Positions 894 through 63,553 are shown, counted from the first letter of the stretch. The stretch is DNA of 64,000 nucleotides from Candidatus Cloacimonadales bacterium (GCA_963662275.1 OY759316.1:2240001-2304000); one strand, 5' to 3'. The notes: generated by a model not told the origin, from the letters alone. A program made the numbers and translations.

Positions 894-3800
894 TGAAAAA
901 ATATCTAATTGTATCATTCTTTGTTTTTCTAATCTCGTTGTGCACCGCTGGTAATTCTCCTTATCCGATAATTTTTGTGCATGGGCTAAAGGATAGTGAT
1001 AAATGTTTCCTTAGTACAATGAGAATACTTAATACAAAAAATGGGAATTCACCAGATGATATCAAAATATATGACGTGATACTGAATGCTGATAATGATA
1101 ATGGCAATTCCTTATTAGCAGATGATGTGAAAGATACACCATTTATTTTACAGAAACACAACGATGTATATGCAATCTATCCCGGAAAAAGAATGTATGC
1201 TGAGTCAGTTAATGATTATGATATGAGTTGGCATGGCGATTCACAGATTTTTGCAGTTAACTTCGATAGTAAAAGAATAAAGGGAACCTTGGGTGAAGTA
1301 TGTGACTTAAGTAATCAGGCTGCTATTTATAAACAAGGTTGTGCCTTAGGAAAAATGATCCAGAAAGTGCTGGATTACACAGGTAAAGACAAAGTAATTT
1401 TAGTCGGTCATTCCTTGGGAGGTTTAGCAATTAGAGAATATCTCCAAAGAACAGATACAGGAATGCCCAATTCACTTCATACATGGTGGGTAGATAAAAA
1501 TGACGAAGAGAATGGACATAAGGTAGCAAGGGTTATTACAATTGACACACCACATTTAGGCTCTAATTCAAGTATTTTTGAACCACTGGTCAAAACAAGA
1601 GAATTTCCTTGGGAAGCATTACCTGATGAGTATAGTGAAGCTGTAAGAGATTTAAGAGTAAGTCACAATTCTCTCGGAGTAGAGCTTAATGGAGTATATT
1701 TATTTGGTGGTATGGAGTCAATTCCAGCATTGCTTTATCATAACTTTGATACGAATTGTAATGGAAATGAAACTGATTATATTACAGGGCTGAATTCTGG
1801 AACTGTGGCAAACCCGGCAATTAAATTACCTGATAATATACCTTATACCTGGGTAACTTCTGATTGTGGTGATGGTGACAACTCCTATTGGAATAATTCG
1901 TATTCTCCCGGTGATGGAGTTGTGTTTTTAGAGAGGCAATATTTATATTCAAATGATTTTATACCCTCTCCAGTAGGCTTAGCAGATACTCTTTTCACAC
2001 ATTACTTACATACAAGTCTCCCTGGAATAGATCATGAATCTGTGTTAAGCCATCCTGAAGTAGCAATCAGAGCTTTGGATGAGCCAGATACAGGTAGTTT
2101 TGCATATTTAGTGGAACCTAATAAGTGGTATAGCGGATTTATTACATATCAACAAGATATGTCTACGATGGATATTGATTTCTATAAGATGGAAGTATCC
2201 ATACCCAGTTTAATTACTTGCGAATTGTGGACGAACCAAACTGGATTACACCATGCTTATTTTACTGATTCTAATTTCGTTGTAATTCACGAACCCGTTA
2301 TTTTGGCAGATGGTCAGAATATCATTACATTTACTGCTTTACCAGGAACGATCTATATTAAGCTTGTTGGAGATGCATACGGTGGTATTTCTGGTAATAA
2401 TGCTTCAACAGATGATGCCTATGATTTTTATATAACTTCTTCTCAGATTTCAATGACAGCTCGATATCACGCTACACCTCTTGCCGGAAATACTGAGACT
2501 AATTTCCATTTTTATGATGATTCTACCACCCAAAACACAACGATAACAACATGGCAATGGGATTTCAACGGGGATGGTGAAGTCGAATCCACAGAGCAAA
2601 ATCCGGTATGGGTATACGACACTCCCGGGACATACAATGTGATTTTAAGAGTAACTGATGGTAGTGGTGCTCCGGGAAATGACGGAATTCATGCTGATTA
2701 TGAGATGAAAATGAACTATATTATTGTTAACGGCTTACCAAGTGGGAATGATAATGAAATTGTCTGGATGGAGTATTTCATCGATACTGATCCTGGAATC
2801 AATAACGGAGAACCCATATTTTTAATTCCTGCTCCGGATATTACTGCTGATGTTTCCATTAACATTGGTAACTTATCAGAGGGACTTCATAGGCTATACA
2901 TAAGGGCTTTGGATTCAAATGGCAAATGGGGACTTCCTCAATGCAAACCTTTCATCGTTCAGCAGACTTCTCCGCAGCAGCCTCTTCCGAATATCACCCA
3001 GATGGAGTATTTCATCGATACCAATGTCAGTCCCGGTAGTGGTACAAGTGTGCCTATCTCATCTTCAAGCGACGTAACTGCTACTACAAATGTGGCTTTG
3101 AATAACCTGACTGAAGGTTTACATCGGATGTATGTTCGAGCTAAAGACGCTAATGGCAGATGGGGTCTTCCTCAATGCAAACCATTCATCGTTCAGCAGA
3201 CTTCTCCTCAGCAGCCCTTACCTAATATCACACAGATGGAGTATTTCATCGATACAAGTGTCAATCCGGGTAGTGGAACAAGCGTGCCAATCTCTCCTTC
3301 TAATGATGTTACTGCTACTACAAATGTAACTTTAAATAATCTATCTGAAGGTTTACATCGAATGTATGTGAGAGCAAAAGATGCAAATGGCAGATGGGGA
3401 CTTCCTCAATGCAAGCCGTTCATTGTCCAGCAGACTTCTCCCTTTGAGTCTTTGCCGACAATCACTGAAATGGAGTATTTTTATGATACTGATCCGGGTA
3501 TTGGACAAGGTTCGCCAATTGCCGTGAGTCCTTCTTCAGATGTGACCGTGAATGCGACTTTGCCTGTCAGTGACCTTGATTTGGGCAATCATACCTTGTA
3601 TTTGCGAGCGAAAGATAGCTTAGATCGATGGGGATTACCACAGTCCATTGGTTTCCAGCTTGTAGTCAGACCGGATACACCTAAGAATGCAGAAATCACT
3701 ATACGGGATGGTGTTTTAGAGATAAGCTGGGATTCAGTCACACAGGTAACGGGCTATAAAGTCTATGCATCAGATAACTCGGTTTCAGGCTTTGCAGATA

Positions 3801-4062: not shown

Positions 4063-4170
4063 GGCAGAGAAGAGCGGAACACTTCTGATTCTTCGATCTT
4101 TTGTAAAGAGAAGACAGGAACACTTTTGATTCCCCGCTCTTTTGTAAGGAGAAGACCTGTTCCCTCTGAT

Positions 4171-4717
4171 TCCCCGCTCTTTTGTAAAGAGAGGGATTAG
4201 GGGAGAGTTAGAATATCCAAAGTTGTGAGGGCATTATGAAAGTCATCAATCATATTTCTACAAAACGAAAGAGATCTGATCTTAGAAAAAAGCAAACTGA
4301 AGCTGAAAAGAAACTATGGTCACGTTTGCGAAATAAGAGTTTTATGGAACTTAAATTCTTCAGACAGTCTAGTATTGGTAATTATATCGCTGATTTCTAT
4401 TGTCCGTAAATGAAGTTGGTGATTGAGGTAGATGGTAGTCAGCATTTTGAAGAATCTAATCTTGAATATGATTTAAAACGTTCAGAATATTTTAGAAGTC
4501 TTGGTATTAGAGTTCTAAGATTCAATAATGGGGATGTTCTGATAAATATCGACGAAGTTATGGAACGCATTTACCTATTTTTGAATGAACCTGATCTGAT
4601 AATGAAATAGGAAACTAACTCTCATTTGATGCAGGAAGTTCTGGTATAATAAGGTAGGAGCTGGTTCAGAGAAGAACTAACTCTCCCCCAACCCCTCTCT
4701 TTACAAAAGAGCGGGGA
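4171..4717. mobile_element. 41-bp inverted repeats (39/41 identical) bracketing a DUF559 endonuclease pseudogene
   Basis: 4171-4211 TCCCCGCTCTTTTGTAAAGAGAGGGATTAGGGGAGAGTTAG is the reverse complement of 4677-4717 with 2 mismatches. Confidence 0.75.
4236..4610 (+). pseudogene. DUF559 / Vsr-like endonuclease interrupted by an in-frame TAA at 4407-4409
   Basis: ATG 4236 gives MKVINHISTKRKRSDLRKKQTEAEKKLWSRLRNK...FFRQ..IGNYIADFYCP*MKLVIEVDGSQH...GIRVLRF in one frame. Confidence 0.88.
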
Positions 4718-4817
4718 GTTAAAGCAATATAGAGCGGGGAGTTAGGCAATATAGAGCGGGGAGTTAAAGCTTTCCAGAGCTGGGAGTTAGGCAATATAGA
4801 GCGGGGAGTTAAAGTCC
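4708..4817. repeat. Five tandem 22-23-nt units AGAGCGGGGAGTTA(AAGC/GGC)AATAT
   Basis: Directly visible tandem expansion of the outer end of the right inverted repeat. Confidence 0.9.
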
Positions 4818-16228: not shown

Positions 16229-16468
16229 CGATACTCCCATTTCTATTTTTGTAAAGTTCTAATGCATAACACATTCCATTACTCATTAATTTTCGGTCAA
16301 GAGAGATTTACAGAAGGTATTTGGACACACTACTATGAAATGGATAAAAACCTGCCCAATATGTTAATTATTGATGATAATAATCCGTAATGCCAGTGTA
16401 CGAATCGATAAATAAATTGAAATATTGACATCATATCCAATTCATTATCATAGGAATAGATTATTAAA

Positions 16469-16492
16469 AGCAGGATCGTTGTCCTGCTCTAC
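16469..16492 (-). repeat. Solo GTAG REP element (same family as 63046-63235)
   Basis: Minus strand reads GTAGAGCAGGACAACGATCCTGCT. Confidence 0.75.
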
Positions 16493-16514
16493 ATTTTAGT
16501 ATTAAGGAGCGTAT

Positions 16515-27022: not shown

Positions 27023-27223
27023 TTATTTCTGGAGTTTTACGATGTACGTTTTGCCTTCAACGACAACGACTAGATAATCACTTCCTTCATAGATAGTACG
27101 TGCTACTACCTTCTTGATATCGCCTTCAAAAATTGGAATACTTTCTTCAGCCCATAGCTTGGAAATAACCGATACGGTTGTGAGCATATAGCTCAAACTT
27201 AGAAATACAAATATCTTTTTCAT
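27023..27223 (-). CDS. 66-aa small secreted protein
   Basis: MKK plus a hydrophobic signal peptide; GGAGG RBS. Confidence 0.75.
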   Translation of the reverse strand: MKKIFVFLSLSYMLTTVSVISKLWAEESIPIFEGDIKKVVARTIYEGSDYLVVVVEGKTYIVKLQK

Positions 27224-27262
27224 ATAACCTCCACTATTTATATAGTGGAGGTTATATGAAAA
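27217..27262. promoter_or_regulatory. Perfect 21-bp inverted repeat containing the RBS and start codon of the 66-aa ORF
   Basis: TTTTCATATAACCTCCACTAT-ttat-ATAGTGGAGGTTATATGAAAA. Confidence 0.8.
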
Positions 27263-27290: not shown

Positions 27291-28208
27291 TTATTTTCGG
27301 TACTTTAAAAGATCTTCAGTCTCTTCCCTCGAAAGCTCTAATTTGCCTTTATCCAGGAAACTATCTAAAGTAAACTCGGTATTATCTGCCTCAATCATTA
27401 CAAGACTCGCCTCGAAAATGTGCAGAACATGAAGATAGTTCTTTTTATCGAAGTTGATTAAGAAAATAGGCATTTTCACTTGCGCATCAAATGTAATACA
27501 AACAAGAGATAGACGATAATTATCTTCCTGGTATCCAATAGACCATTCGCGACATTCTGCAATATCGCTAAAAATTGTTTGAACTTCCTCTGGGTTAATA
27601 CCTCTCAGATAGTTATTCAGATTTGTAATTGTCTTTTCCTCAACCGATTTCACAATTGTCCTGATAAATCTGGTTATGTTATTAAATTGCGCGAAATTAA
27701 GGACTTTTGTGCTATACCTCCATCCTTCATTCCAAAGTACATAGGAGAGAAGATTCCTTTTTATTCTTTTCTTTTGAAATGAGGCTGTATTATAACTCAG
27801 TTTTTCTTTTTCAGAATATTTTAGAATATTGAAATCAAGTTTTTTAAACTTTTGATATATTTTAAAATCTTCAACTGATAGAGCTTTTCTCACAAGTTTA
27901 TCATCTACCTTGGGAAGTGCTTCCGAATCATCATCAACTACTTTTGCAGGTTGAGGACTAGAAAATTTATTAATCGTGATATCATTATTTCTTTTAGCCT
28001 CTTCCAATTGATGCAAAGCTTCACGTTTCACAACTGTACGTAGCCAAGCGTAAGGACTGGTTACTTCTGTCTTCGATGAAATTAATTGCAGCATGGCGTT
28101 TTGGGCGATATCATAAGCTGAATCTTCATAACCTATGAATTTATAGGCAATACTCAGAGAGTATTTATACAGATCTTTGTAATCATTTTCCTGTAAAATT
28201 ATACTCAT
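27291..28208 (-). CDS. ECF/sigma-70-like factor with C-terminal extension
   Basis: Region-2-like LYKYSLSIAYKFIG...AYDIAQNAMLQL...AWLRTVVKRE, a degenerate region-4-like HTH, and about 150 extra C-terminal residues. Confidence 0.65.
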   Translation of the reverse strand: MSIILQENDYKDLYKYSLSIAYKFIGYEDSAYDIAQNAMLQLISSKTEVTSPYAWLRTVVKREALHQLEEAKRNNDITINKFSSPQPAKVVDDDSEALPKVDDKLVRKALSVEDFKIYQKFKKLDFNILKYSEKEKLSYNTASFQKKRIKRNLLSYVLWNEGWRYSTKVLNFAQFNNITRFIRTIVKSVEEKTITNLNNYLRGINPEEVQTIFSDIAECREWSIGYQEDNYRLSLVCITFDAQVKMPIFLINFDKKNYLHVLHIFEASLVMIEADNTEFTLDSFLDKGKLELSREETEDLLKYRK

Positions 28209-28715
28209 ACTACCACCTGCATTTTTTTAGAAACATTTATAAAGCATAAACACTGTCAAGAGTTTTTTATAAATCATATATGTGTATTTAAATTTTTAAA
28301 AAGCAGCTTGATAATGTAAAGTGATTAGCAATGTATAGTGAATTATGATTTTTATGAAGAATAACACTATTTTATTGAATAGAATGATGAAATTTATCTG
28401 ACTCTTTGCTTACACAAGTATTATTAGGATGTCTATTTCGCAATTCGCTCTCGATCAATAATCGCTTTATCAATACTAATTTGAAGAACTGATTCCAGGC
28501 TCATAGAAAACCTCCGCAGGTAAGGGGTAATTAGATTTTAAATGCACTATTTAGTTGAATTGAATTTAATGAAAATAGATGCTGCCGGTGAATTGGTCAA
28601 TGTAGTAGGAGATGCTATGGAATTGGTAGAGACTTGCCTGAAAATCTTTTTGCATTGATCAATTTGTAACGGATGTGTTTTCCTGCTATATTCTGAAGTT
28701 TGTAACTTTATGGCT

Positions 28716-29176
28716 CGTAATATAGAGTGGTATTCTGTTATATGAGGGGATTGGTAATCCCTGATAGAATCTTCATCCGATAATACCATTATCAAATACA
28801 ACACATTGCCAATGTATGCCACGCACAGTCGTAACATAAAGTGGTACTTTGTTGTATGAGTGAATTGGTAATCCCCGATTTCCTTTCATCATTGTTAACT
28901 GGCAATAACTGAATAAAGAAGAATCCGACAATACCATTGTCTTATACAACAGTTTATCAAACTATGTTACGGACGTCGTAACATAAAGTGGTACTTTGTT
29001 GTATGAGTGGATTGGTAATCCCCGACTCCCTTCTGCTTTCATATTAGCTGGTAATCTCCGATAGAATCTTCATCCGATAATACCATTATCGAATACAACA
29101 CATTACCAATGTATGCCACGACTCAGATTCCGACAATACTATTGTCTCATACAACAGTTTACCAAACTATGTTACG
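28716..29176. repeat. Array of seven about 50-nt REP-like double-hairpin units in both orientations
   Basis: Units CGTAACATA-xxx-TGGTA-xxx-TGTTGTA... at 28716, 28830 and 28977 (+) and ending at 28823, 28971, 29120 and 29176 (-). Confidence 0.9.
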
Positions 29177-30293
29177 CCCCTGCATTCTGAAAATCAAGGG
29201 AAATCCTACACACACGAAAGCCTACATACGTATAGCTGCTCGTCGCATAAATGTAGCTCCGATCGGAAACGGTGCTATTGCTCGGACCACTGTTCCAGCT
29301 ACCACCGCGGTACACTCGGTAAGACCCACTGACTGCCCCATGCGGGTTATTTTGCGCTCCGCTCGGATATGTACCCGGAATGTCCCAGTTCCACTCCCAG
29401 ACGTTACCGGTCATATCAAACAGACCCAGTTCATTGGCTGTCTTGGTGCCTACAGTGTGTGTTGTACTGCTGGAGTTACCACTATACCAAGCCACCTCAA
29501 TAATGTCATTACTACCGCTATAGGTAAAACCATGTGTTGAGATACCACCACGTGCAGCAAACTCCCATTCAGCTTCTGTCGGAAGACGATAACCATTCGC
29601 TGTCCAGTTACATATAATATTAGTATGGTTATTATAATCGGAGTTCCAACTGGAAGGCCAGGAAGCTGGATTTGTGCCATATGTAAGATAACTGTAACAA
29701 GGGGTCTGACCTTCATTTATACTGCGTTTGTTACAATATTCAATGGCATTGAACCAGGATATATAGTATACCGGATAATTGCTGCCGACACCGTATCCCG
29801 ATGCTGGATTGTTTCCCATCACTGCCTGATACGCAGCTTGTGTCAGCTCGTACTTATCCAAATAGAAACTGCTCACGGTTACATCAGATACGCCATTATT
29901 GAATGTTCCACCTGCTATATAAATAAAGTTCTCGGGTATAGGTATGCTATCCCATGCCTGGACGATAAAGGCAAACTGGCTGCCATCAAAACTCTGCGTT
30001 TCATTGCCTGCCTGCCAGATGATGTGTTTTCCCGTACCTATATGGATTTTACCAGAAGCTCCGCTGAGATTGGCATTATTCGGAATTATAGTATAAGTAC
30101 TTCCACCGTCATTGGACAAATTCAGTGTGATATAGACGCTATCAGCGGTTGCGTATGAGACATCAAAGTAAATATCGACAATTTTTGAGCCATCGGTGCG
30201 CTGGGAGGCTGTGGCATTGGTTACCACCGGATCGGCGGCATATATTGCAACTGAAAGAATAAGTAAAAGCAATAAAAGTATTGTATTCTTCAT
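29172..30293 (-). CDS. Secreted FGE-sulfatase (SUMF1/C-type-lectin fold) protein
   Basis: Signal peptide, FYLDKYELTQ, YRLPTEAEWEFAARGG, NELGLFDMTGNVWEW, RGGSW...GFRVCR. Confidence 0.95.
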   Translation of the reverse strand: MKNTILLLLLLILSVAIYAADPVVTNATASQRTDGSKIVDIYFDVSYATADSVYITLNLSNDGGSTYTIIPNNANLSGASGKIHIGTGKHIIWQAGNETQSFDGSQFAFIVQAWDSIPIPENFIYIAGGTFNNGVSDVTVSSFYLDKYELTQAAYQAVMGNNPASGYGVGSNYPVYYISWFNAIEYCNKRSINEGQTPCYSYLTYGTNPASWPSSWNSDYNNHTNIICNWTANGYRLPTEAEWEFAARGGISTHGFTYSGSNDIIEVAWYSGNSSSTTHTVGTKTANELGLFDMTGNVWEWNWDIPGTYPSGAQNNPHGAVSGSYRVYRGGSWNSGPSNSTVSDRSYIYATSSYTYVGFRVCRISLDFQNAGA

Positions 30294-30347: not shown

Positions 30348-30455
30348 AACTCTCCCTTAATCCCTCCCTTTATCCAAAGGGAGGGAAATCAGACAGGATA
30401 CATTTCTATGAAGTGCCAGTCTGGAAAATTCCTCCCTTTGTATAAAGGGAGGTGG
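30348..30455. repeat. Pair of CCCTCCCTTT-N4-AAAGGGAGGG hairpins (relatives of the DUF559-flanking repeat)
   Basis: Hairpins at 30362-30385 and 30431-30452; the first is preceded by CTCCCTTAAT. Confidence 0.75.
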
Positions 30456-31804: not shown

Positions 31805-31925
31805 TCCTGTTTCATACCAGTTTCAATCCTGTTTCATACCAGTTTCAATCCTGTTTCGCGAAACAGCTTTGAGATTTGTATGTAATAGGATTCAGGTTGG
31901 ATTGAATTTGTATTGATATTGGTAT
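31805..31925. repeat. 11-bp-periodic degenerate repeats arranged around a palindrome
   Basis: (TCCTGTTTCAT ACCAGTTTCAA)x2, then TCCTGTTTCGCGAAACAG and degenerate 11-mers. Confidence 0.6.
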
Positions 31926-31993
31926 TTTATAGGTGGAATATTGTCGGATTCAAATCTAACGAATATGCACGCTGCTTAAGTCACAACTTCAAT

Positions 31994-32247
31994 CGGTAGC
32001 AACAACTTCAGTCGTTGGAGCAACTGCTTTAGCCGGTAGCAACAACTTCAGTCGTTGGAGCAACTGCTTTAGCCGTTTAGGGGTTTAAAACCCCTTGATC
32101 TGATAAATCAAATCAGCCAACGAATAAATTCGTTGCTACGAATGTTGAGGTTTCAATCTCTATGAATTGTAAGTTATTTCAGAAGTAGCGTTGAAACGCT
32201 ATGGTTTGATGAATCAAACCGGTACAACGAATAAATTCGTTGCTACG
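31994..32247. repeat. GTAG REP cluster upstream of RAYT
   Basis: Exact 40-bp tandem duplication containing GTAGCAACAACTTCAGTCGTTG (31994-32073). Two inverted copies CAACGAATAAATTCGTTGCTAC at 32118 and 32225. Confidence 0.88.
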
Positions 32248-32327
32248 GAAATCGTAGTTACACAAATATCTTGACACAATTAATGTAAACAGAATAATTA
32301 AATAAATTAGAAATAAAGGGAGGGACT

Positions 32328-33017
32328 ATGAAATCAAGTGAACCATATCAAACCTACCACAAAGGACATCTACCCCATTTACAACCACAAGATCGAGCTT
32401 TCTTTATAACCTTTAGACTCGACATTGAACTAACAACGGATTTCTATCTTAGCATGGAAAAAAAGAAAAACGAACTTACTAACAGTTTAATGAATATCAA
32501 ATCACCTGCAGAACGTAATCTGATATTTAGTAAAAAGCTTTTTGCCTATACGGATAATTACTTTGATAAACTTCAAAGCAAGCATAATATACTTCAAGAA
32601 GCAACCTATGCGCAACTTGTTGTGAATGAATTAAAAGCTTTTGATACAGAAATGTATGATCTATATGCATATACGATCATGCCGAATCATGTACATATTC
32701 TCTTCAAACCGTTGAAGAATACTGATGGAGATGATTATTCTATAGCAAAGATCATACAAAAGGTGAAGGGAAGAAGCGCTCGGTTCATCAACCTGGAGTT
32801 GGGACGATCAGGGAAATTCTGGCAAAAAGAATACTATGATCATTATGTGAGAGATGAAAAGGAATTGCATAACATCGTTCGATATATTGTGAGAAACCCT
32901 TTTAATGCCGGATTAGCTGAACAACCCAAAGACTGGCGTTGGACTTGGGTGTTGCAGGAATTCCAAGCAACCATGAATGAAGATTGTATCAGAGAAGAAG
33001 AATCAGAATATTGTTAG
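32328..33017 (+). CDS. REP-associated tyrosine transposase (RAYT, IS200/Y1 HUH family)
   Basis: HLPH...FFITFRL, IMPNHVH (HUH), FWQKEYYDHYVR...YIVRNP. Confidence 0.93.
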   Translation: MKSSEPYQTYHKGHLPHLQPQDRAFFITFRLDIELTTDFYLSMEKKKNELTNSLMNIKSPAERNLIFSKKLFAYTDNYFDKLQSKHNILQEATYAQLVVNELKAFDTEMYDLYAYTIMPNHVHILFKPLKNTDGDDYSIAKIIQKVKGRSARFINLELGRSGKFWQKEYYDHYVRDEKELHNIVRYIVRNPFNAGLAEQPKDWRWTWVLQEFQATMNEDCIREEESEYC

Positions 33018-34818: not shown

Positions 34819-34947
34819 TTTTATTTCCTTATTTAATAGTGAAATGCTATTTAAAACATTTATGACAATTACGTAATGGTTATCAATAACCTTCACGTTC
34901 GTTTTTTACTAATTTCTAATAGTCAATTTTTCAGTAGGATCGGAATC

Positions 34948-35997
34948 CTACTCCACAACATAGATAGGGTTTGTATATATCCAGCCTAAGCAATATCGTT
35001 GTATTTCCAATCTGTAGAAACCTGGTTTCGTAATCTCAAACTTCCCATGAATACCCGATTGTTTACTTACTGTCTTTCCGTTATGGATCAAGTGAATCCT
35101 GCCGTTTTTTGGTAGATTATAATATAACGCTAGTGAATCAGTAAATTTAATATCTTCACCACAGATAGCACTATTACCATGATCATCACAAATAGCAGTA
35201 TAAAAATTTGAAGGGGCACCAAGTCTTTGGTTCACAACGTAAGAATTGCCATTCTTCAGCGCTATTAAAACATCCTGCTGATCAGGATTTTGTTTCATGG
35301 GAATTAAAACATTGGTTCTGATATAGGCAAATAAAAGATTATGAGTTAAAACTTTCCATTTCATTCCAAAAATCTTTATACTCGTTCCATGAGCATCAAT
35401 TGCACCAATACCTGACTTTCGTTTTCCCTGCAAGTTCAGGTCATCCCAATATTTCAAAACTTTCCTGTATGGTCTCCTGATAAACATTTGCGGAAATAAC
35501 AGATGGAATGCTCCATTACGCCAATAATTCATTGTTTTCAGCCAAGATGAGATAAAATTCCAGATTTCCAGACCATCGAATTTATCCAATTCCAATTTAT
35601 TCCACTGGTATTTTGGAAAACGATTACCACATCTGTCTTCTAAAGGATGAGCTGCAAAAGTGATTGCCCCGGCTTTTTTATAATAAGCCAAGTAGTCTTC
35701 AACTCTGCCATTTGAAAGAGCTGTTTGATTATTAAATACGAGTAAGTGGTGTTCATCAACAGCATCATTTATTTCCATACCGGGAATCAGGAGAATTTTT
35801 TTTTCCCTGATGAAATCCGGATCATTGATCACATTCAAATTATTATGATCGGTAATACAGACATAATCAAGTCTTCTTTTCCTGGCAGCCTGGATCAGAG
35901 AGAAAACAGATTCATTTGAATCAAATGAATAGATCGTGTGATTATGGATTGTTCCCGTTAAATCAAGAAAATCACGTTTGAATATACGTTTCTTCAC
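34948..35997 (-). CDS. PHP-domain metallophosphoesterase
   Basis: HNHT..S.D, ITDHN, AHP and DAH motifs. Confidence 0.85.
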   Translation of the reverse strand: MKKRIFKRDFLDLTGTIHNHTIYSFDSNESVFSLIQAARKRRLDYVCITDHNNLNVINDPDFIREKKILLIPGMEINDAVDEHHLLVFNNQTALSNGRVEDYLAYYKKAGAITFAAHPLEDRCGNRFPKYQWNKLELDKFDGLEIWNFISSWLKTMNYWRNGAFHLLFPQMFIRRPYRKVLKYWDDLNLQGKRKSGIGAIDAHGTSIKIFGMKWKVLTHNLLFAYIRTNVLIPMKQNPDQQDVLIALKNGNSYVVNQRLGAPSNFYTAICDDHGNSAICGEDIKFTDSLALYYNLPKNGRIHLIHNGKTVSKQSGIHGKFEITKPGFYRLEIQRYCLGWIYTNPIYVVE

Positions 35998-41344: not shown

Positions 41345-44281
41345 TTATAGTTTCTTTTCCATTTCTTCCATGATATAAGATTCAATTGTGTCATTTTCCT
41401 TAAGATCCGTAAAGCCTTCAATGGAAATACCACAATCAGATCCTGCTTTCACTTCGCTTGCTTCATTGGCATAATGTTTCAACGAAGACATTTTACCATC
41501 ATGAATCAACACATCATTGCGATATACCCGAATTTGAGAATTACGCTGCATGATACCTTCCTTAACGAAGCAACCAGCGATTGTACCGACTTTTTTGATT
41601 CTGAATACTTGTTTGACCATTGCAGAACCTAAGAATTTCTCTTGGAAAGTCGGTTTTAGTAAACCAACCATAGCCAAGCGTACATCTTCTATAGCATTGT
41701 AGATAATCTGATATGTTTTGATCTCCACACCTTCATCTTCAGCAAGCTTTTTAGCCATTGCATTTGCTCTGACATGGAAACCTATAATTATCGCATCGGA
41801 AGCATTTGCCAAGTTTACATCTGCTTCAATGATTCCTCCAACAGATTTATGAATAATATTCACAGCTACTTCTGAAGTAGACAGCTTCTGGAATGAATCG
41901 CATAAAGCCTCAACAGAACCGTCAAAATCACCTTTTACAATGATCTTCAGTTCTGACATCTGATTTTCTTTAATACGGATGAATAGATTCTGGAGACTTG
42001 TCTTATTATGATATTTTTCTCTTTCTAAACGTATCTGTAAACGCTCCGAACTGATCTGCCGTGCAATTTTACTATCTGCGACCTGATTCAGGATATCACC
42101 TGCTTTTGGCACATCATTCAATCCATAGATTCTTGCTATATCAGAAGGGTGAAGTATTTTAATCTCCTGGAATCGTTCATTCTCTAATTTTCTTACTCTT
42201 CCATAGGTTGCACCGCAACAAACAACATCTCCTTTTGTTAAGGTTCCTTCCTGGAGGAGAATGGTAACAACGGCACCCATATGAGTATCTTTTTCTGCTT
42301 CGATCACAACACCGGAAGCAGGAACATCTTCCTTTGCTGTCAGTTCTTTCATTTCAGATGTAAGAAGAATCAATTCGAGTAAATCTGGTATCCCTTTACC
42401 GGTAACAGCAGAACATTTTGCCCAGGGAACTTCTCCACCATATTGTTCCAGATAGACTCCATTTTCCAATAATTGAGCGATGGTCTTATCGATATTAGCA
42501 TCAGGTAAATCAATCTTATTAATGGCTATAATCATGGATACGCCCGCTGCTTTAGCATGATCAATGGCTTCCTTGGTTTGAGGCATCACACCATCATTGG
42601 CAGCGACGACAATAATCGCAATATCAGTTGCATTTGCACCACGGGCACGCATTGCTGTAAAAGCTTCATGACCGGGTGTATCAAGGAACGTGATCTTATG
42701 TTTGTGATAGGTGATCTGATAAGCACCAATATGCTGGGTAATGCCACCGGATTCACCGGCAACGACATTGCTGTCTCGAATATAATCCAGGATGGAAGTC
42801 TTACCATGATCAACGTGTCCCATAATTGTTACAACAGGAGGACGGGTAACGTCTTCTGCATCCGTGTATTTTTCTGTTTCCTTTTCAATCAGATCAACCC
42901 CATATTCGTCTTCAAATTGCGCATGAAATTCAAATTCATTGCAGATCAATTCCAGGGTATCACGATCAAGACGCTGGTTTATATTCGCTAGCTGTCCCAT
43001 TTGAAAAAGCTTTCCGATGATCTCGGTAGGCTGTTTATTCATAATTTTCGCTAATTCACTTACAGAAGTGAATTCTCTAATGATTATCTCCCCAGTTTCA
43101 CTCATAACAATTTGTGATTGAGGTTCGCGAACATATTTTTTCTTTTTGTGAGACTTCGCCATCGTAGCACGAATGTTTTTTACAATTTCAGCTTCTTCTA
43201 TTTCAGTTGGTAAAGCATGTGTTGGCTTTTTCCCTTTTTTTGTGCTATTTATTTTGGCTTTTAAGTGTTTACTTTTATCTCCAAATTCTTCTACTCCTGC
43301 TTTGTTCTTTCCAAATTTCCGTGTGACAGGCACTTCTGTACCAACTCGTACAGATTTGCCTTCTGTACTATCAGTTTTTGAAGTAGGAGAAAATGACGGT
43401 TTGGGTTTGAAAGGTGTACGCACCCCAAATTTGTTCTGACCTGCTTCACCAGTTGATTGACCCTGGTATGCGTTATCTCTATATGGTGGTCGAGTGGAAG
43501 GTGGACCTGAAGGTCTACGATCACGATCATAGCCAGCACCACGTTGAGCATCACCAGGTCTATTATACTGTTGCTGGGGGCGATCTCCACCTGGTCTTGG
43601 ACCTTGTTGCTGATATCGATCACCACCCGGTCTTGGACCCTGTTGCTGATAGCGGTCTCCACCTGGTCTTGGACCCTGTTGCTGGTATCGGTCTCCACCC
43701 GGTCTTGGACCTTGGTTTGTTCCCTGTCCTTGTTGCGGAGGACGATTATACTGTTGCTGCCCGTCTGTTCTCTGACCACTCTGCTGGTATTGCCTTTCAG
43801 GTTGCCTTGGAGCTTGAGTTGGCTTATCGCCTGTTGGGCGGACAGTTCTGCCGTCTACAATACTAGCTTTTTCTTGGGCATGTGCACGTTTTTGCTGTTC
43901 TGTAGCAACATTTTCATTCGGTCTTAGCTGAGGTTGAACGACATCCGGTTTCTTTGTTTCTTTCACATGGATTTCAACTTCCTCAGTCTTTATCACTGTT
44001 TTAGGTTCTGGAACCTGATTCTCAACAAGTTTCTCGATAGCAGGTTTTGGTGGTTCCGGTACAGGTTCTTTTTTATGTTCCTGGAACGCTTTTCTGTCTA
44101 AATCTAATTTTTTAGCTGCATTTATCTGCTCATTAAACATACCGCGAATTCTGTTCGCAGTTTCATCTTCGATCTGGCTCAAATGACTTTTTACATCTAT
44201 ACCAAGATCATGTAAATGCTTCCGTAAGGCAGCAGATGATATTTTTAATTCTTTCGAAAGATCCTGAACTCTTATGGACAA
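41345..44281 (-). CDS. infB: Translation initiation factor IF-2 (TTG start)
   Basis: RPPVVTIMGHVDHGKT, DTPGHEAF, NKID; GGAGG upstream of the TTG. Confidence 0.98.
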   Translation of the reverse strand: MSIRVQDLSKELKISSAALRKHLHDLGIDVKSHLSQIEDETANRIRGMFNEQINAAKKLDLDRKAFQEHKKEPVPEPPKPAIEKLVENQVPEPKTVIKTEEVEIHVKETKKPDVVQPQLRPNENVATEQQKRAHAQEKASIVDGRTVRPTGDKPTQAPRQPERQYQQSGQRTDGQQQYNRPPQQGQGTNQGPRPGGDRYQQQGPRPGGDRYQQQGPRPGGDRYQQQGPRPGGDRPQQQYNRPGDAQRGAGYDRDRRPSGPPSTRPPYRDNAYQGQSTGEAGQNKFGVRTPFKPKPSFSPTSKTDSTEGKSVRVGTEVPVTRKFGKNKAGVEEFGDKSKHLKAKINSTKKGKKPTHALPTEIEEAEIVKNIRATMAKSHKKKKYVREPQSQIVMSETGEIIIREFTSVSELAKIMNKQPTEIIGKLFQMGQLANINQRLDRDTLELICNEFEFHAQFEDEYGVDLIEKETEKYTDAEDVTRPPVVTIMGHVDHGKTSILDYIRDSNVVAGESGGITQHIGAYQITYHKHKITFLDTPGHEAFTAMRARGANATDIAIIVVAANDGVMPQTKEAIDHAKAAGVSMIIAINKIDLPDANIDKTIAQLLENGVYLEQYGGEVPWAKCSAVTGKGIPDLLELILLTSEMKELTAKEDVPASGVVIEAEKDTHMGAVVTILLQEGTLTKGDVVCCGATYGRVRKLENERFQEIKILHPSDIARIYGLNDVPKAGDILNQVADSKIARQISSERLQIRLEREKYHNKTSLQNLFIRIKENQMSELKIIVKGDFDGSVEALCDSFQKLSTSEVAVNIIHKSVGGIIEADVNLANASDAIIIGFHVRANAMAKKLAEDEGVEIKTYQIIYNAIEDVRLAMVGLLKPTFQEKFLGSAMVKQVFRIKKVGTIAGCFVKEGIMQRNSQIRVYRNDVLIHDGKMSSLKHYANEASEVKAGSDCGISIEGFTDLKENDTIESYIMEEMEKKL
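43570..43712 (-). repeat. 36-nt tandem repeats encoding QQQGPRPGGDRY in the IF2 N-terminal linker
   Basis: About 4 copies of GPRPGGDR. Confidence 0.9.
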
Positions 44282-52856: not shown

Positions 52857-53004
52857 GTCTCGTTGGCTGCTCCGGTGAAAGGACAGGTAAACCATGCTGT
52901 CACGATTCCTGAAGTAATCAACACAACAAAAAAGCTTCATAATTGTATAGTTACTAACCAAACAACATAACTAACAAGTGTCTGGTCAGAATTGCTATTT
53001 GTAT

Positions 53005-54865
53005 GAGACTGTTCATGAAGTTATTCATAATATTCAATAAGTTAGAAAGTAGCAAGTTGAAAAAAGTGGTCGAAACGGTCATAATTTAACATACCTTCCA
53101 GAATTGACAGATAAGCTCTGCTAAGGACACCAAATCACAAGTTAAGCTTTTTGACTAAAATTGAAAAACACGCGATTATAAGTAATGTTTCGAAGCCGTT
53201 TCTGACTAAATGTGTAGTTAAAATCATATAAAATAGTTCTTTACAAGTTTTTTGCTATAGCTTCAATGGCATTTGTTACCTGGTAACAAAAGGGAGGATA
53301 TTATGACAAAAAAACACTCCAATTCAAGAAGCGGTAAGTGTTAGTCATGAAAGTAACCAATACCATGTAAGTATTAACGTACCATTTTCATTCACTTTGC
53401 CTGAGACAACATCAAACCACAAGTTCTTAATAGCGTTTCTACGCTTATTAGTAGGAATAGGCGGAGACAACCTCCTTACACTTCAGCAAATAGCTGATCT
53501 GTTTAACTACGCAGACCGCAGGAATGTACATAATTTCTGGCAAGAGTTTGAGCAGCATGGTCATGATATCCTGGCATATTTAAGCCGGAAAGTTGACCTG
53601 CTGGAGTGTATTCCTCAGATCGAGAATTTTGTTATCAATAACCTGCTTTTACCTTTAAATGTCATGTATCAGGAGTTCATCAGCCATCATGATTTTAAAA
53701 TGTCCTATACCACTTTCTGCAAATATGCTTCTCAGGTCAATTCTCTGTCTGTAGTTAAGCAAGCTCAGAAGCTTCTTCTGAAAAAGACAGTAGGCGGTGA
53801 TGCTGTACATCTGCTGAAACTGCTTGCCGGTCAGCAGAATACACCTGTTATCTGTGACAGACTCCTGGAACAAATGAAGACTGCTAAAGGCAATACATCC
53901 CATAGAACCGCCGATGCAAAGCCGTTCCATAGTCTGGAACGCAAGAACCTGTGTCTGCTGGTACATTACCTGGTTGGAAGCGGTATGAACTTCGAGACGA
54001 TAGCTTTGCTGCTCAACACCTGTAAAGCTACAGTCTCAAATCTCTGGCATGAAATCGCTGACCTGCAGAGCCTGATTCTGAACTCAATCGGTAAGTGGAG
54101 CGGAAAGATCAGCATTGATGAGAAATATGTGAAGATCAAAGGTATTCCGTACTATGTCATCAGTATTGTTGATTTTGTGACTCACATCCCTCTGTTTTGT
54201 GAGTTGTATCCTGACACAAAGAAAGAATCATTCGAAGCATGTTTCAGAACCTTCAGACAGCTCTACAGGAAAGATCCAACCCTGATTGTCAGTGATGGCA
54301 GTAAATCGTTAGCAGTTGCAAGAAAAACAGTGTTTCCAAAAGTCCATTACCAACTCTGTAAGTTCCATAAGATACGAAATCTCTTCAAAAGAATCAGTCA
54401 ATGTCATCTCCCTGAAGACAGGGACAAGTTCTTTAAGAAGAGGATTATGAAAGCTTTCCGAAGAGAAACGGCGGGCGGAAGGAAAAAGGGTATCGCAAGC
54501 CTGACAGCTATTACTCCCCCAACCGCCGCCGAATACATCAAAAGCAATATCATTAGTGATTGGAGACACCTCAGCAAAGGTTTGACTTCCAATGTCTCTG
54601 AACGCTGGAACCGCAAAATCAAGAAGGTGACATCCGGTAGATTTGGACTAAAATCTGAAGAAACCACCCGCAACCTTGTGTTTTCGCTTTGGTTCAAAGA
54701 ACTGGTCGATAAAGGTCAACCAATCATGCGTCAGGAATCACTTTTAGCAAGTTTAAATATCTCCCGCATATGTCAAGAAAATGTGGATTGGTCGCACTTA
54801 GACCACTTTTTCTCTGTCACTACCAATAAGGCTGCGTAAAATGGAGGTTAATTTTGAACAGTCTC
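53005..54865 (+). mobile_element. Insertion sequence, IS256/Mutator-like DDE superfamily, 1861 bp, 8-bp target duplication
   Basis: 11-bp perfect terminal IRs GAGACTGTTCA / TGAACAGTCTC; ATTTGTAT duplicated at 52997-53004 and 54866-54873. Confidence 0.92.
53303..54839 (+). CDS. DDE transposase with a frameshift in an A7 run after the start codon
   Basis: ISIDEKY, IVSDG, LCKFH (CxxH), TSNVSERWN. The RBS-linked ATG at 53303 is one base out of frame with the main ORF (53397-54839). Confidence 0.85.
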
Positions 54866-54982
54866 ATTTGTATTGCAAAAAAAAATCAATAACAATAGAT
54901 TGACTTATTTGAAGTAGTTATTAAAAATATCTTAATTGCATTAATTTTTAAAACTCCTAGTCGTATATTTTCTGGAGGATTA

Positions 54983-62974: not shown

Positions 62975-63045
62975 CACAGTAATTGACAGTGAGTTGTCCA
63001 TCTCCTATATCATATATGGGATCAAATCCCCATATGGTTTGCCTT

Positions 63046-63553
63046 GTGGAGTAGGATTCCGATCCTACTGAATAGTAGCTCCGCATTTACGCGGTTGTAG
63101 AGCACGATGCCGATCCTGCTGATTAGTAGCTCCGCATTTACGCGGTTGTAGAGTAGGACGCTGTTCTTACTGTCTTTCTTTGGTAGTGGCATCCTTCAGG
63201 TTGCCTTCTTTGTAGAGCAGGATGCCGATCCTGCTTCGGCTTGGAGATAGAAACGCACGGGGTTCGTTTTGCCACCTGACGGGGTCAGGCGTTCCTGTAG
63301 ATCACAGGACGGCAGACAATGACCTAAAGAGCATTATCCTCAAGCTGAAGCAGTGACCATAATCTGAGAGTGTTCGAGGTCGGGACGACACTCTCACAAA
63401 ACAGATAAGACTATCTGTGCTACCGGACTCCGAACCAGAATGTGTCCGCTGACGCGAACCCCTACTTTTCCCAGGAAGGACTTCCTGGGCTAACGGAGTA
63501 ACGTCCTTTGGACTGTAATGCACCCCCCTACCCGAGGGGGGATTAAGGGTGGT
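63046..63553. repeat. Dense cluster of several distinct GTAG-type REP hairpins
   Basis: GTAGAGCAGGATGCCGATCCTGCT-type x4, GTAGCTCCGCATTTACGCGG x2, GTAGTGGCATCCTTCAGGTTGCC, and minus-strand GTAGCACAGATAGTCTTATCTGT and GTAGGGGTTCGCGTCAGCGGACAC. Confidence 0.8.

Follow-up and report, generated by a model that had tools for sequence, protein, structure and literature searches.

Covarying hairpins with a conserved TGGTA tip behind an FGE-sulfatase gene of a Candidatus Cloacimonadales bacterium: a candidate atypical REP-like family

The genome of a Candidatus Cloacimonadales bacterium contains, within a stretch of 64,000 nucleotides (GCA_963662275.1 OY759316.1:2240001-2304000, one strand; hereafter the window), an array of hairpins that occupies positions 28716-29176 and lies directly behind a gene for a protein with an FGE-sulfatase domain. 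The array is made up of seven units with two hairpins each, and the stems of these hairpins have changed in compensating fashion while their tip, TGGTA, has hardly varied. We hold with moderate confidence that the array is a cluster of an atypical family resembling the repetitive extragenic palindromes (REPs), one that would be read as folded single-stranded DNA (ssDNA), through a T:A-closed GGT tip and a GTRR tag, by an enzyme of the REP-associated tyrosine transposase (RAYT) type. Such an enzyme would possibly be one of three RAYT paralogues encoded outside the window.

Layout of the array

The units are 47-50 nt long, have a GC content of 35-46%, and share the frame pattern CGTRRCATANNNTRRYANNNTGTTGTAT, which has seven sites in the window (six exact and one with two mismatches) and no match in 100 dinucleotide-preserving shuffles of it. 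This bears out the original prediction of seven units of about 50 nt, three on the plus strand and four on the minus strand, with two hairpins in each (Table 1). All units follow one plan, in which two hairpins stand head to tail within about 50 nt. The first hairpin (H1) carries CGT[AG][AG] as its 5' tag, and its stem of 9 bp contains a single bulged T and ends in a GGT triloop closed by a T:A pair; the second (H2), which follows GTAT in 7 of 7 units, has a stem of 5-6 bp and the same tip as H1.

There are two types of unit, A on the plus strand and B, with the variants B1 and B2, on the minus strand, and both stems differ between the types. Their order is A'(U1)-B1(U2), A(U3)-X1-B2(U4), A(U5)-X2-B1(U6), followed by a solo B2 (U7), where X1 and X2 are remnants in the spacers. 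The array thus consists of three inverted A(+)/B(-) doublets, which are heterodimers with their tags facing outward, and one solo B unit. The spacer within the first doublet, which bears a deletion, is 11 nt long, while those of the second and third doublets are 45 nt and 47 nt long and each hold one tip remnant. Neighbouring doublets meet tag to tag across 5-6 nt, and the inverted arms of the doublets extend over 31-43 nt with 72-81% complementarity.

Identities within the array point to a history of local duplication and deletion. Units U3 and U5 are 95% identical, U4 and U7 are 92% identical, and the internal duplications recur at a spacing of 148-149 nt. The segments 28752-28823 and 29049-29120 are 94% identical, suggesting that U1 was a U5-type unit from which about 35 nt, lying between two copies of the TGGTAATC repeat, were deleted. 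Tandem Repeats Finder did not detect the array, because its units alternate in orientation. An open reading frame (ORF) of 96 amino acids (28547-28837, minus strand) runs across U1-U3 and is carried as a protein in the public annotation; it is most likely not a gene.

Hairpin structure and covariation

The tip is TGGTA in 11 of the 14 unit hairpins, and TGGCA, TGATA and TAGTA occur once each. The H1 stems are AGAG/TTCT, AAAG/CTTT (twice), ACAT/ATGT (twice) and AGTT/AACT (twice), and the H2 stems are GGGAT/ATCCC, GATAA/TTATC (twice) and GACAA/TTGTC (twice), with imperfect pairing of TGAAT in U3 and TGGAT in U5 to ATCCC. These loop counts and stems are those that had been listed in the original prediction, apart from the imperfect H2 of U3 and U5. 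Elsewhere in the 64-kb window, on both strands, we found only two hairpins with an exact TGGTA loop and at least four pairs. TGGTA had been described as the loop, and its conservation stands; the T and A pair with each other, however, and the tip is better described as a GGT triloop closed by T:A.

Covariation was measured on 19-nt segments with six stem pairs in 16 rows (the 14 hairpins together with X1 and X2; 15 of the rows are distinct). Of the stem cells, 85.6% were paired, compared with 53.9% in shuffles, and 28 cells showed a double change, compared with 9.8 in shuffles; none of 500 shuffles reached the observed values for pairing or double change. When the 3' partner was slid by 1-3 columns as a control, 32-47% of cells were paired. 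An independent analysis of the seven whole units with RNAalifold agreed, giving H1 as nine pairs with one bulged T and the T:A-closed GGT triloop, with two-sided changes at four of the nine pairs. In this alignment the two frame mismatches of U1 prove to be one compensated pair, C-G to T-A. At least eight two-sided stem changes, counted by hand as haplotypes, have taken place while the tip hardly varies. The claim of compensating stem changes under a constant loop is therefore upheld, and the data support the conclusion that the hairpin structure and the tip have been kept beyond what common descent would lead one to expect.

The hairpins are nevertheless weak. Lone units folded as ssDNA at -3.3 to -6.2 kcal/mol, with z-scores of -0.8 to -3.6, and both hairpins were present in the single-unit folds of 5 of the 7 units. 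Global folds of the whole array consist mostly of long-range pairing between inverted units and were not counted as evidence for the local hairpins. The two TGGYA sites in the spacers are tip and 3'-arm remnants that make poor hairpins. Among the 14 hairpins read in unit orientation there are 10 G.T pairs and one A.C pair, and seven of the 10 G.T pairs are one inherited position; this excess weakly favours folding of the strand that carries TGGTA. Since three units point one way and four the other, the tips could never all be alike in one transcript.

Resemblance to REP families and the RAYT genes of the genome

The array shares several properties with REPs. Its units are short imperfect palindromes that fold on one strand; they are extragenic, lying between the FGE ORF and the ORF of a sigma-like protein, with 5 nt of U7 overlapping the end of the FGE ORF; and they alternate with regular spacing in dimers and clusters. 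REP families have been described as forming head-to-head and tail-to-tail (HH/TT) heterodimers and clusters whose spacers contain small stem-loops (Di Nocera et al. 2013, PMC3733652), and PMC2817692 is among the descriptions of the architecture of REP dimers, clusters and bacterial interspersed mosaic elements (BIMEs). The alternating orientation, the two unit types and the two spacer classes of the array match this architecture. In common with the REP/BIME clusters and the REP dimers or REPINs of E. coli and Pseudomonas, as presented in PMC3733652, the array is built of short palindromes that lie outside genes and keep a 5' tag, and it has two alternating unit types that form heterodimers, two spacer classes, stem-loop remnants in the spacers, compensating stem changes within the family, and RAYTs in the same genome. 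An undescribed class of REP had been among the original suggestions. The clusters of inverted doublets and the wealth of REPs and RAYTs in the genome agree with a REP-like class, although covarying stems, heterodimers and structured spacers are features that the same source already records for REP families.

The source genome is rich in REPs and RAYTs. The RAYT gene of the window, 3.1 kb from the array, encodes a protein that matches NCBIfam NF047646 with 92.7 bits (cut-off 80), Pfam Y1_Tnp and the E. coli TnpA-REP (PDB 4er8), and that has the motifs NHVH, WQ and YIVRNP. Three more paralogues (P0131, P0133 and P0135), at 52-53% identity, are encoded on the same 4,378,784-bp contig, which brings the genome to at least four diverged RAYTs. 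The RAYT of the window is an example of the proposed class of enzyme, and it is a candidate for the cognate enzyme of the array rather than an established one, because the REPs that flank it (31985-32250) differ from the units of the array. These hairpins are GTAG-tagged and lie upstream of the RAYT ORF, an arrangement that is REPtron-like with repeats on the upstream side only. Within this upstream region (31805-31848 and 31985-32250), 22 nt are perfectly duplicated in tandem, a 40-nt repeat bearing a GTAG-tagged hairpin occurs twice, and a GTAG hairpin whose stem measures 7 bp is present in two inverted copies.

A second family in the window, family Y, is a canonical REP family in which the tag stands directly before a GC-richer stem of 7-8 bp with a loop of 4-6 nt. 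Its stems are AGCAGGAT/ATCCTGCT and a compensated variant, AGTAGGAT/ATCCTACT, and at 63044-63145 it forms 51-nt units whose second hairpin is also GTAG-tagged. By eye, the H1 frame of the array (CGTAA-CA...GTTG) resembles the REP that flanks the RAYT (CGTAG-CAAC...GTTG), and a likeness to family Y is seen in the type-A H2 together with its leader. The array had been said to differ from the GTAG REPs nearby; in view of these resemblances, which are suggestive at most, this is only partly true. A permissive listing of sites with a GTRR tag before a hairpin gave 259 entries, mostly noise, and was set aside.

A number of observations weigh against assigning the array to the REPs. A 5' tetranucleotide GT[AG]G at 0-2 nt from the foot of the hairpin defines REPs in PMC3733652 and in Quentin et al. 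2018 (PMC6006769), and in the array five of the 7 units have GTAA as their H1 tag and two have GTGG, while GTAG never occurs. The prediction rule of PMC6006769 asks that G/C make up at least three of the first four pairs at the base of the stem, or that the stem GC reach 50%; the stems of the array are AT-rich and weak, with an H1 base of ACAT/TGT(T)GT and inner stems that are mostly A-T. The repeat is also not found beside the RAYT of the window, whose flanks hold other hairpins and where R1, a covariance model of the seven units, scored 7.7 bits (E 8.8). Strict membership of the REPs fails on three points: five of the seven units lack a GT[AG]G tag, the stems are not GC-rich, and the cognate RAYT is no more than a candidate. 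Unlike REP/BIME clusters, the array also has a fixed tandem of two hairpins in each unit, one known locus, and a link to a RAYT that is that of a candidate, and its tip is the most conserved part and its inner stem the most variable, which is the reverse of most REP families. In addition, the whole array is bracketed by a direct repeat of 13/16 nt, and RAYT or REP events are not known to yield such bracketing repeats.

The search for further copies belongs with these contrary points. As had been proposed originally, R1 was built and run over the window, with filters off; it recovered just the seven units, at 65-77 bits, and the next match in the window scored 10 bits (E of about 2). Comparison of the array with the window by blastn revealed no other copy, leaving one locus in 64 kb, and blastn against plasmid and phage collections gave no match. 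A scan of the frame pattern over the genomes of 185,579 species, among which the inclusion of the source genome was not established, gave no true copy. Its sole locus, in a metagenome-assembled genome of Dojkabacteria, is a chance match because its stems do not pair, and about two such matches were expected by estimate. At the protein level, the 96-amino-acid ORF matched only itself among 5.8 billion proteins, and a read-through ORF of 112 amino acids matched, among 1.84 billion representative proteins, itself and one 306-amino-acid repeat protein (E 1.2e-4). The latter is a Xenopus tropicalis reference protein, and we attribute the match to chance or low complexity. Rfam had no match at gathering score in the window, with chance-level matches (E 0.9-9.9) over 28200-29300, and no tRNA or tmRNA genes were found. 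Literature on TGGTA hairpin loops with transposases provided no description of such a repeat, nothing on such repeats was found in literature on Cloacimonadota with REPs or diversity-generating retroelements (DGRs), and the RepRanger paper does not mention Cloacimonadota. Together these results point to a rare or lineage-restricted family.

Two further published systems resemble the array. One is the S. maltophilia REPtron, whose TnpA-REP belongs to group 3 (PMC8266576, by Corneloup et al. 2021). Its hairpin pairs perfectly over 8 bp below a loop of 3 nt; the enzyme depends, for binding as well as for cleavage, on the G that opens this loop, and it needs a perfect stem but is little affected when the stem sequence is exchanged, whereas the E. 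coli enzyme needs GTAG, the bulge and bases of the lower stem and ignores the loop. The array likewise combines a short stem with a 3-nt loop starting with G, and its fixed tip with covarying stems would follow the same logic. The S. maltophilia REP differs, however, in that it consists of one GC-rich palindrome, perfectly paired over 8 bp, and has a strict GTAG tag, whereas H1 of the array is bulged and has another tag. Genes of subclass 2.6 and class 3 TnpA-Y1 proteins have been reported to be flanked by REP-like repeats of weaker structure and without GT[AG]G (PMC6006769). According to the portion of that study used here, they were found by manual inspection, in the FCB (Fibrobacteres-Chlorobi-Bacteroidetes) group and other phyla and with one Bacteroidetes subclass. 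The array is like these atypical repeats in its weak structure and in lacking GT[AG]G, as grouped there. Those repeats are defined by flanking their own transposase gene, whereas the units of the array do not flank the RAYT of the window, and the motifs of this RAYT are, by eye against the table of PMC6006769, nearer to subclasses 2.4 and 2.7 than to subclass 2.6.

If the array is a REP-like family, a possible course of events is as follows. The strand carrying TGGTA would fold when single-stranded, and a RAYT-type HUH/Y1 enzyme could bind the hairpin mainly by its tip and 5' tag and cut and rejoin DNA near it, an activity that may seed inverted doublets and tandem clusters. The stem would need only to pair while the tip would be contacted base-specifically, so that stems could drift by compensation and the tip would remain fixed. 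The array would also fall within the FGE mRNA's 3' untranslated region, where it may serve as a structure at the end of the message. Recognition by a protein, cleavage, mobility and any effect on expression are inferred, whereas the anatomy of the repeats, their covariation, the conserved tip, the architecture of the cluster and the abundance of REPs and RAYTs in the genome are observed.

Should this interpretation be correct, the array would represent REP-type repeats of an uncultured and little-studied phylum and would invert the usual pattern of conservation, as its tip is fixed, its stem is free and GTAG is missing as a tag. It would carry over to nature the result obtained by systematic evolution of ligands by exponential enrichment (SELEX) for one RAYT group, in which the loop can be read and the stem need only pair. 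The family would offer simple oligonucleotide substrates and bear on how diverged RAYT paralogues share out the repeat families of one genome. For the physiology of the cell the import would be small unless the link to the hypervariable FGE gene recurs; if the same hairpins sit behind other FGE paralogues, REP-like repeats would be linked to targeted protein diversification.

The FGE gene, alternative explanations and other features of the window

The gene that precedes the array on the same strand encodes P0001, a protein with its FGE-sulfatase domain at the C-terminus; a gene for a sigma-70-region-2 protein follows on this strand about 500 nt downstream of the array. Where they are named, the homologues of P0001 are proteins of Cloacimonetes or Cloacimonadota, and the sorting tails of the type IX secretion system (T9SS) in proteins of the window fit the FCB group. 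A 24-amino-acid segment near the C-terminus, before the residues GFR, has a mean pairwise identity of 24%, compared with 72% in the rest of the domain (10 sequences), and the genome holds at least four FGE paralogues. This hypervariable segment makes "DGR-target-like gene" a fair label. Two copies of a perfect 22-nt hairpin with a 9-bp stem (30363-30384 and 30431-30452) lie between the FGE gene and its upstream gene, and a 21-bp perfect hairpin (27217-27262) follows the sigma-like gene. Both look like terminators, and there is no similar hairpin directly after the FGE ORF.

The array had been placed directly on the stop codon of this gene. The stop TAA (29172-29174) is indeed inside U7, supplied by its tag CGTAAC, but the overlap is probably secondary. 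All nine aligned FGE homologues end in R-[IV]-[SAF]-P-stop, whereas P0001 ends in RIS followed by eight extra residues (29194-29216) that occur in none of the nine. The loss of one C from the C-run at 29198-29200 would have turned S-P-stop into read-through, with TGA 29194-29196 out of frame. The array would then have come to overlap the stop codon through a one-base frameshift that removed the native stop.

The position behind a hypervariable gene led originally to the suggestion of a targeting hairpin array of a DGR, in which the FGE gene would be a remote target, the hairpins on the sense strand would mark it for integration of complementary DNA (cDNA), and the array would be an amplified signal. 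Besides the variable segment and the paralogues, the tips speak for it. In the DGR hairpins of Guo et al. 2011 (PMC3240598) the stem varies and the GRNA loop is conserved, and the hairpins lie on the sense strand 4-34 bp after the variable region (VR); the GRNA tetranucleotide, as GGTA, is in 15 of 16 TGGTA-type tips of the array, and the first sense-strand hairpin begins about 30 nt past the last GFR codons. The two systems thus share a hairpin just downstream of a variable C-terminal region of C-type lectin (CLec)/FGE type, with a free stem sequence, a constrained loop and GRNA in the tip. What the cited part of that paper describes is, however, one hairpin per VR, with a GC-rich stem of 7-10 bp and a 4-nt GRNA loop, in a system with a reverse transcriptase (RT) and a template repeat (TR). 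In the array there are 14 hairpins, some in each orientation; their stems are AT-rich and their loops measure 5 nt (or 3), and of this description only the GRNA of the tip fits. No RT was found among the 48 ORFs scanned in the window, the 349 nt at the gene's 3' end have no TR-like copy in the 64 kb, no GC-rich stretch resembling an initiation of mutagenic homing (IMH) site was seen by eye, and the frame has REP-like tags. The idea is poorly supported, and we regard a DGR array as very improbable. Little more can be said for a combination of the two themes, in which the T:A-closed GGT triloop, and not the stem or a GTAG tag, would specify a class of repeats read by a lineage-specific protein (a RAYT paralogue or a trans-acting DGR) and planted to mark or drive diversification of the FGE gene; we think this unlikely.

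An element that acts as RNA and is kept in place, either in the FGE gene's 3' untranslated region or in a long leader of the downstream sigma-like gene, has somewhat more in its favour, though it too seems doubtful. Its role could be to protect the mRNA end, to terminate transcription, or to offer many sites to an RNA-binding protein that reads UGGUA tips, and it would have grown through local duplication and not by transposition. This would fit the location of the array between two same-strand genes and directly behind the FGE ORF, which has no strong terminator hairpin of its own while its neighbours have the long perfect ones mentioned above (27217-27262 and 30363-30452). It would also fit the good folding of the array as RNA (z = -7.1), the single known locus, and the 148-149-nt internal duplications with the near identity of U3 and U5. 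With three units on one strand and four on the other, however, one transcript would present UGGUA on about half of its tips and UACCA on the others; inverted doublets with conserved tags are a hallmark of REP-type DNA elements, Rfam has no match for the array, and no candidate for an RNA-binding partner was identified. It is similarly unlikely that a conventional transposase inserted the array of about 490 bp as a block, or its doublets of about 145 bp with inverted ends of 31-43 nt, as a non-autonomous element of the MITE kind (miniature transposable elements with inverted repeats), with the flanking repeat as target duplication. The complementary arms of the doublets, the bracketing direct repeat, in which 13 of 13 bases match once an indel of 3 nt is allowed for (a score reached by 0.75% of 2000 shuffles), and the presence in the window of a Mutator/IS256-type transposase gene with 24-nt inverted ends would all agree with such an insertion. 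Individual doublets, however, have no target duplications, with 5-6 nt between one doublet and the next. Distances of 18 and 2 nt separate the bracketing repeat from the outermost units, and by eye the bracketed block does not end in inverted repeats. The ends of the insertion sequence (IS) share with the units an 11-mer, which by our estimate is expected by chance, and 13-16 nt is long for a target duplication. Integron attC sites, replication iterons, DnaA boxes and integration host factor (IHF) sites were considered and dropped, by eye against their consensus sequences, as no core sites or partner genes were seen.

Table 1. Units of the array and other features of the window (positions counted from its first nucleotide)
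Feature	Position	Strand	Description
U1, type A'	28716..28765	+	tag CGTAAT; H1 loop 28728-28732; H2 loop 28752-28756
U1 H2			probably fused to spacer remnant via ~35-nt deletion between two TGGTAATC repeats
U2, type B1	28777..28823	-	tag CGTGG; H1 ACAT/ATGT, loop TGGCA; H2 GATAA/TTATC
U3, type A	28830..28879	+	tag CGTAA; H1 AAAG/CTTT; H2 TGAAT/ATCCC (imperfect)
X1, spacer remnant with TGGCA	28893..28911	+	weak hairpin in another register; inside 45-nt spacer 28880-28924
U4, type B2	28925..28971	-	tag CGTAA; H1 AGTT/AACT, loop TGATA; H2 GACAA/TTGTC
U5, type A	28977..29026	+	95% identical to U3; H2 TGGAT/ATCCC imperfect
X2, spacer remnant	29042..29060	+	TGGTA loop and 3' arm of type-A H2, unpaired; spacer 29027-29073 (47 nt)
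U6, type B1	29074..29120	-	tag CGTGG
U7, type B2, solo	29130..29176	-	H2 loop TAGTA; tag CGTAAC
Bracketing direct repeat, left copy	28682..28697	.	16 nt
Bracketing direct repeat, right copy	29179..29191	.	13 nt, inside last codons of FGE ORF
FGE-sulfatase/CLec-type gene (P0001)	29172..30293	-	373 aa; array directly after, same strand
RAYT gene (P0002)	32328..33017	+	REP-associated tyrosine transposase; 3.1 kb from array
REP family Y	16468-16493	-	GTAG/GTGG-tagged
REP family Y	34930-34958	-	GTAG/GTGG-tagged
REP family Y	63044-63235	+	GTAG/GTGG-tagged; four copies

Other repeats and mobile elements were noted in the window. A DUF559 gene at 4236-4610 is split by an in-frame stop into halves of 57 and 66 amino acids, both of which match PF04480 (profile positions 5-50 and 54-108). 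It lies between inverted arrays (4084-4211 and 4677-4800) of another repeat family of about 40 nt, with 48-nt arms that are 90% complementary. The Mutator/IS256-type transposase ORF occupies 53397-54839, and its inverted repeats of 24 nt (52992-53015 and 54855-54878) are 79% complementary. In-frame repeats were seen within two coding sequences: the N-terminal part of the IF-2 gene (43546-43725) has four at a spacing of 36 nt, and the gene of a 1026-amino-acid PKD-domain protein has three of 234 nt at 2869-3570.

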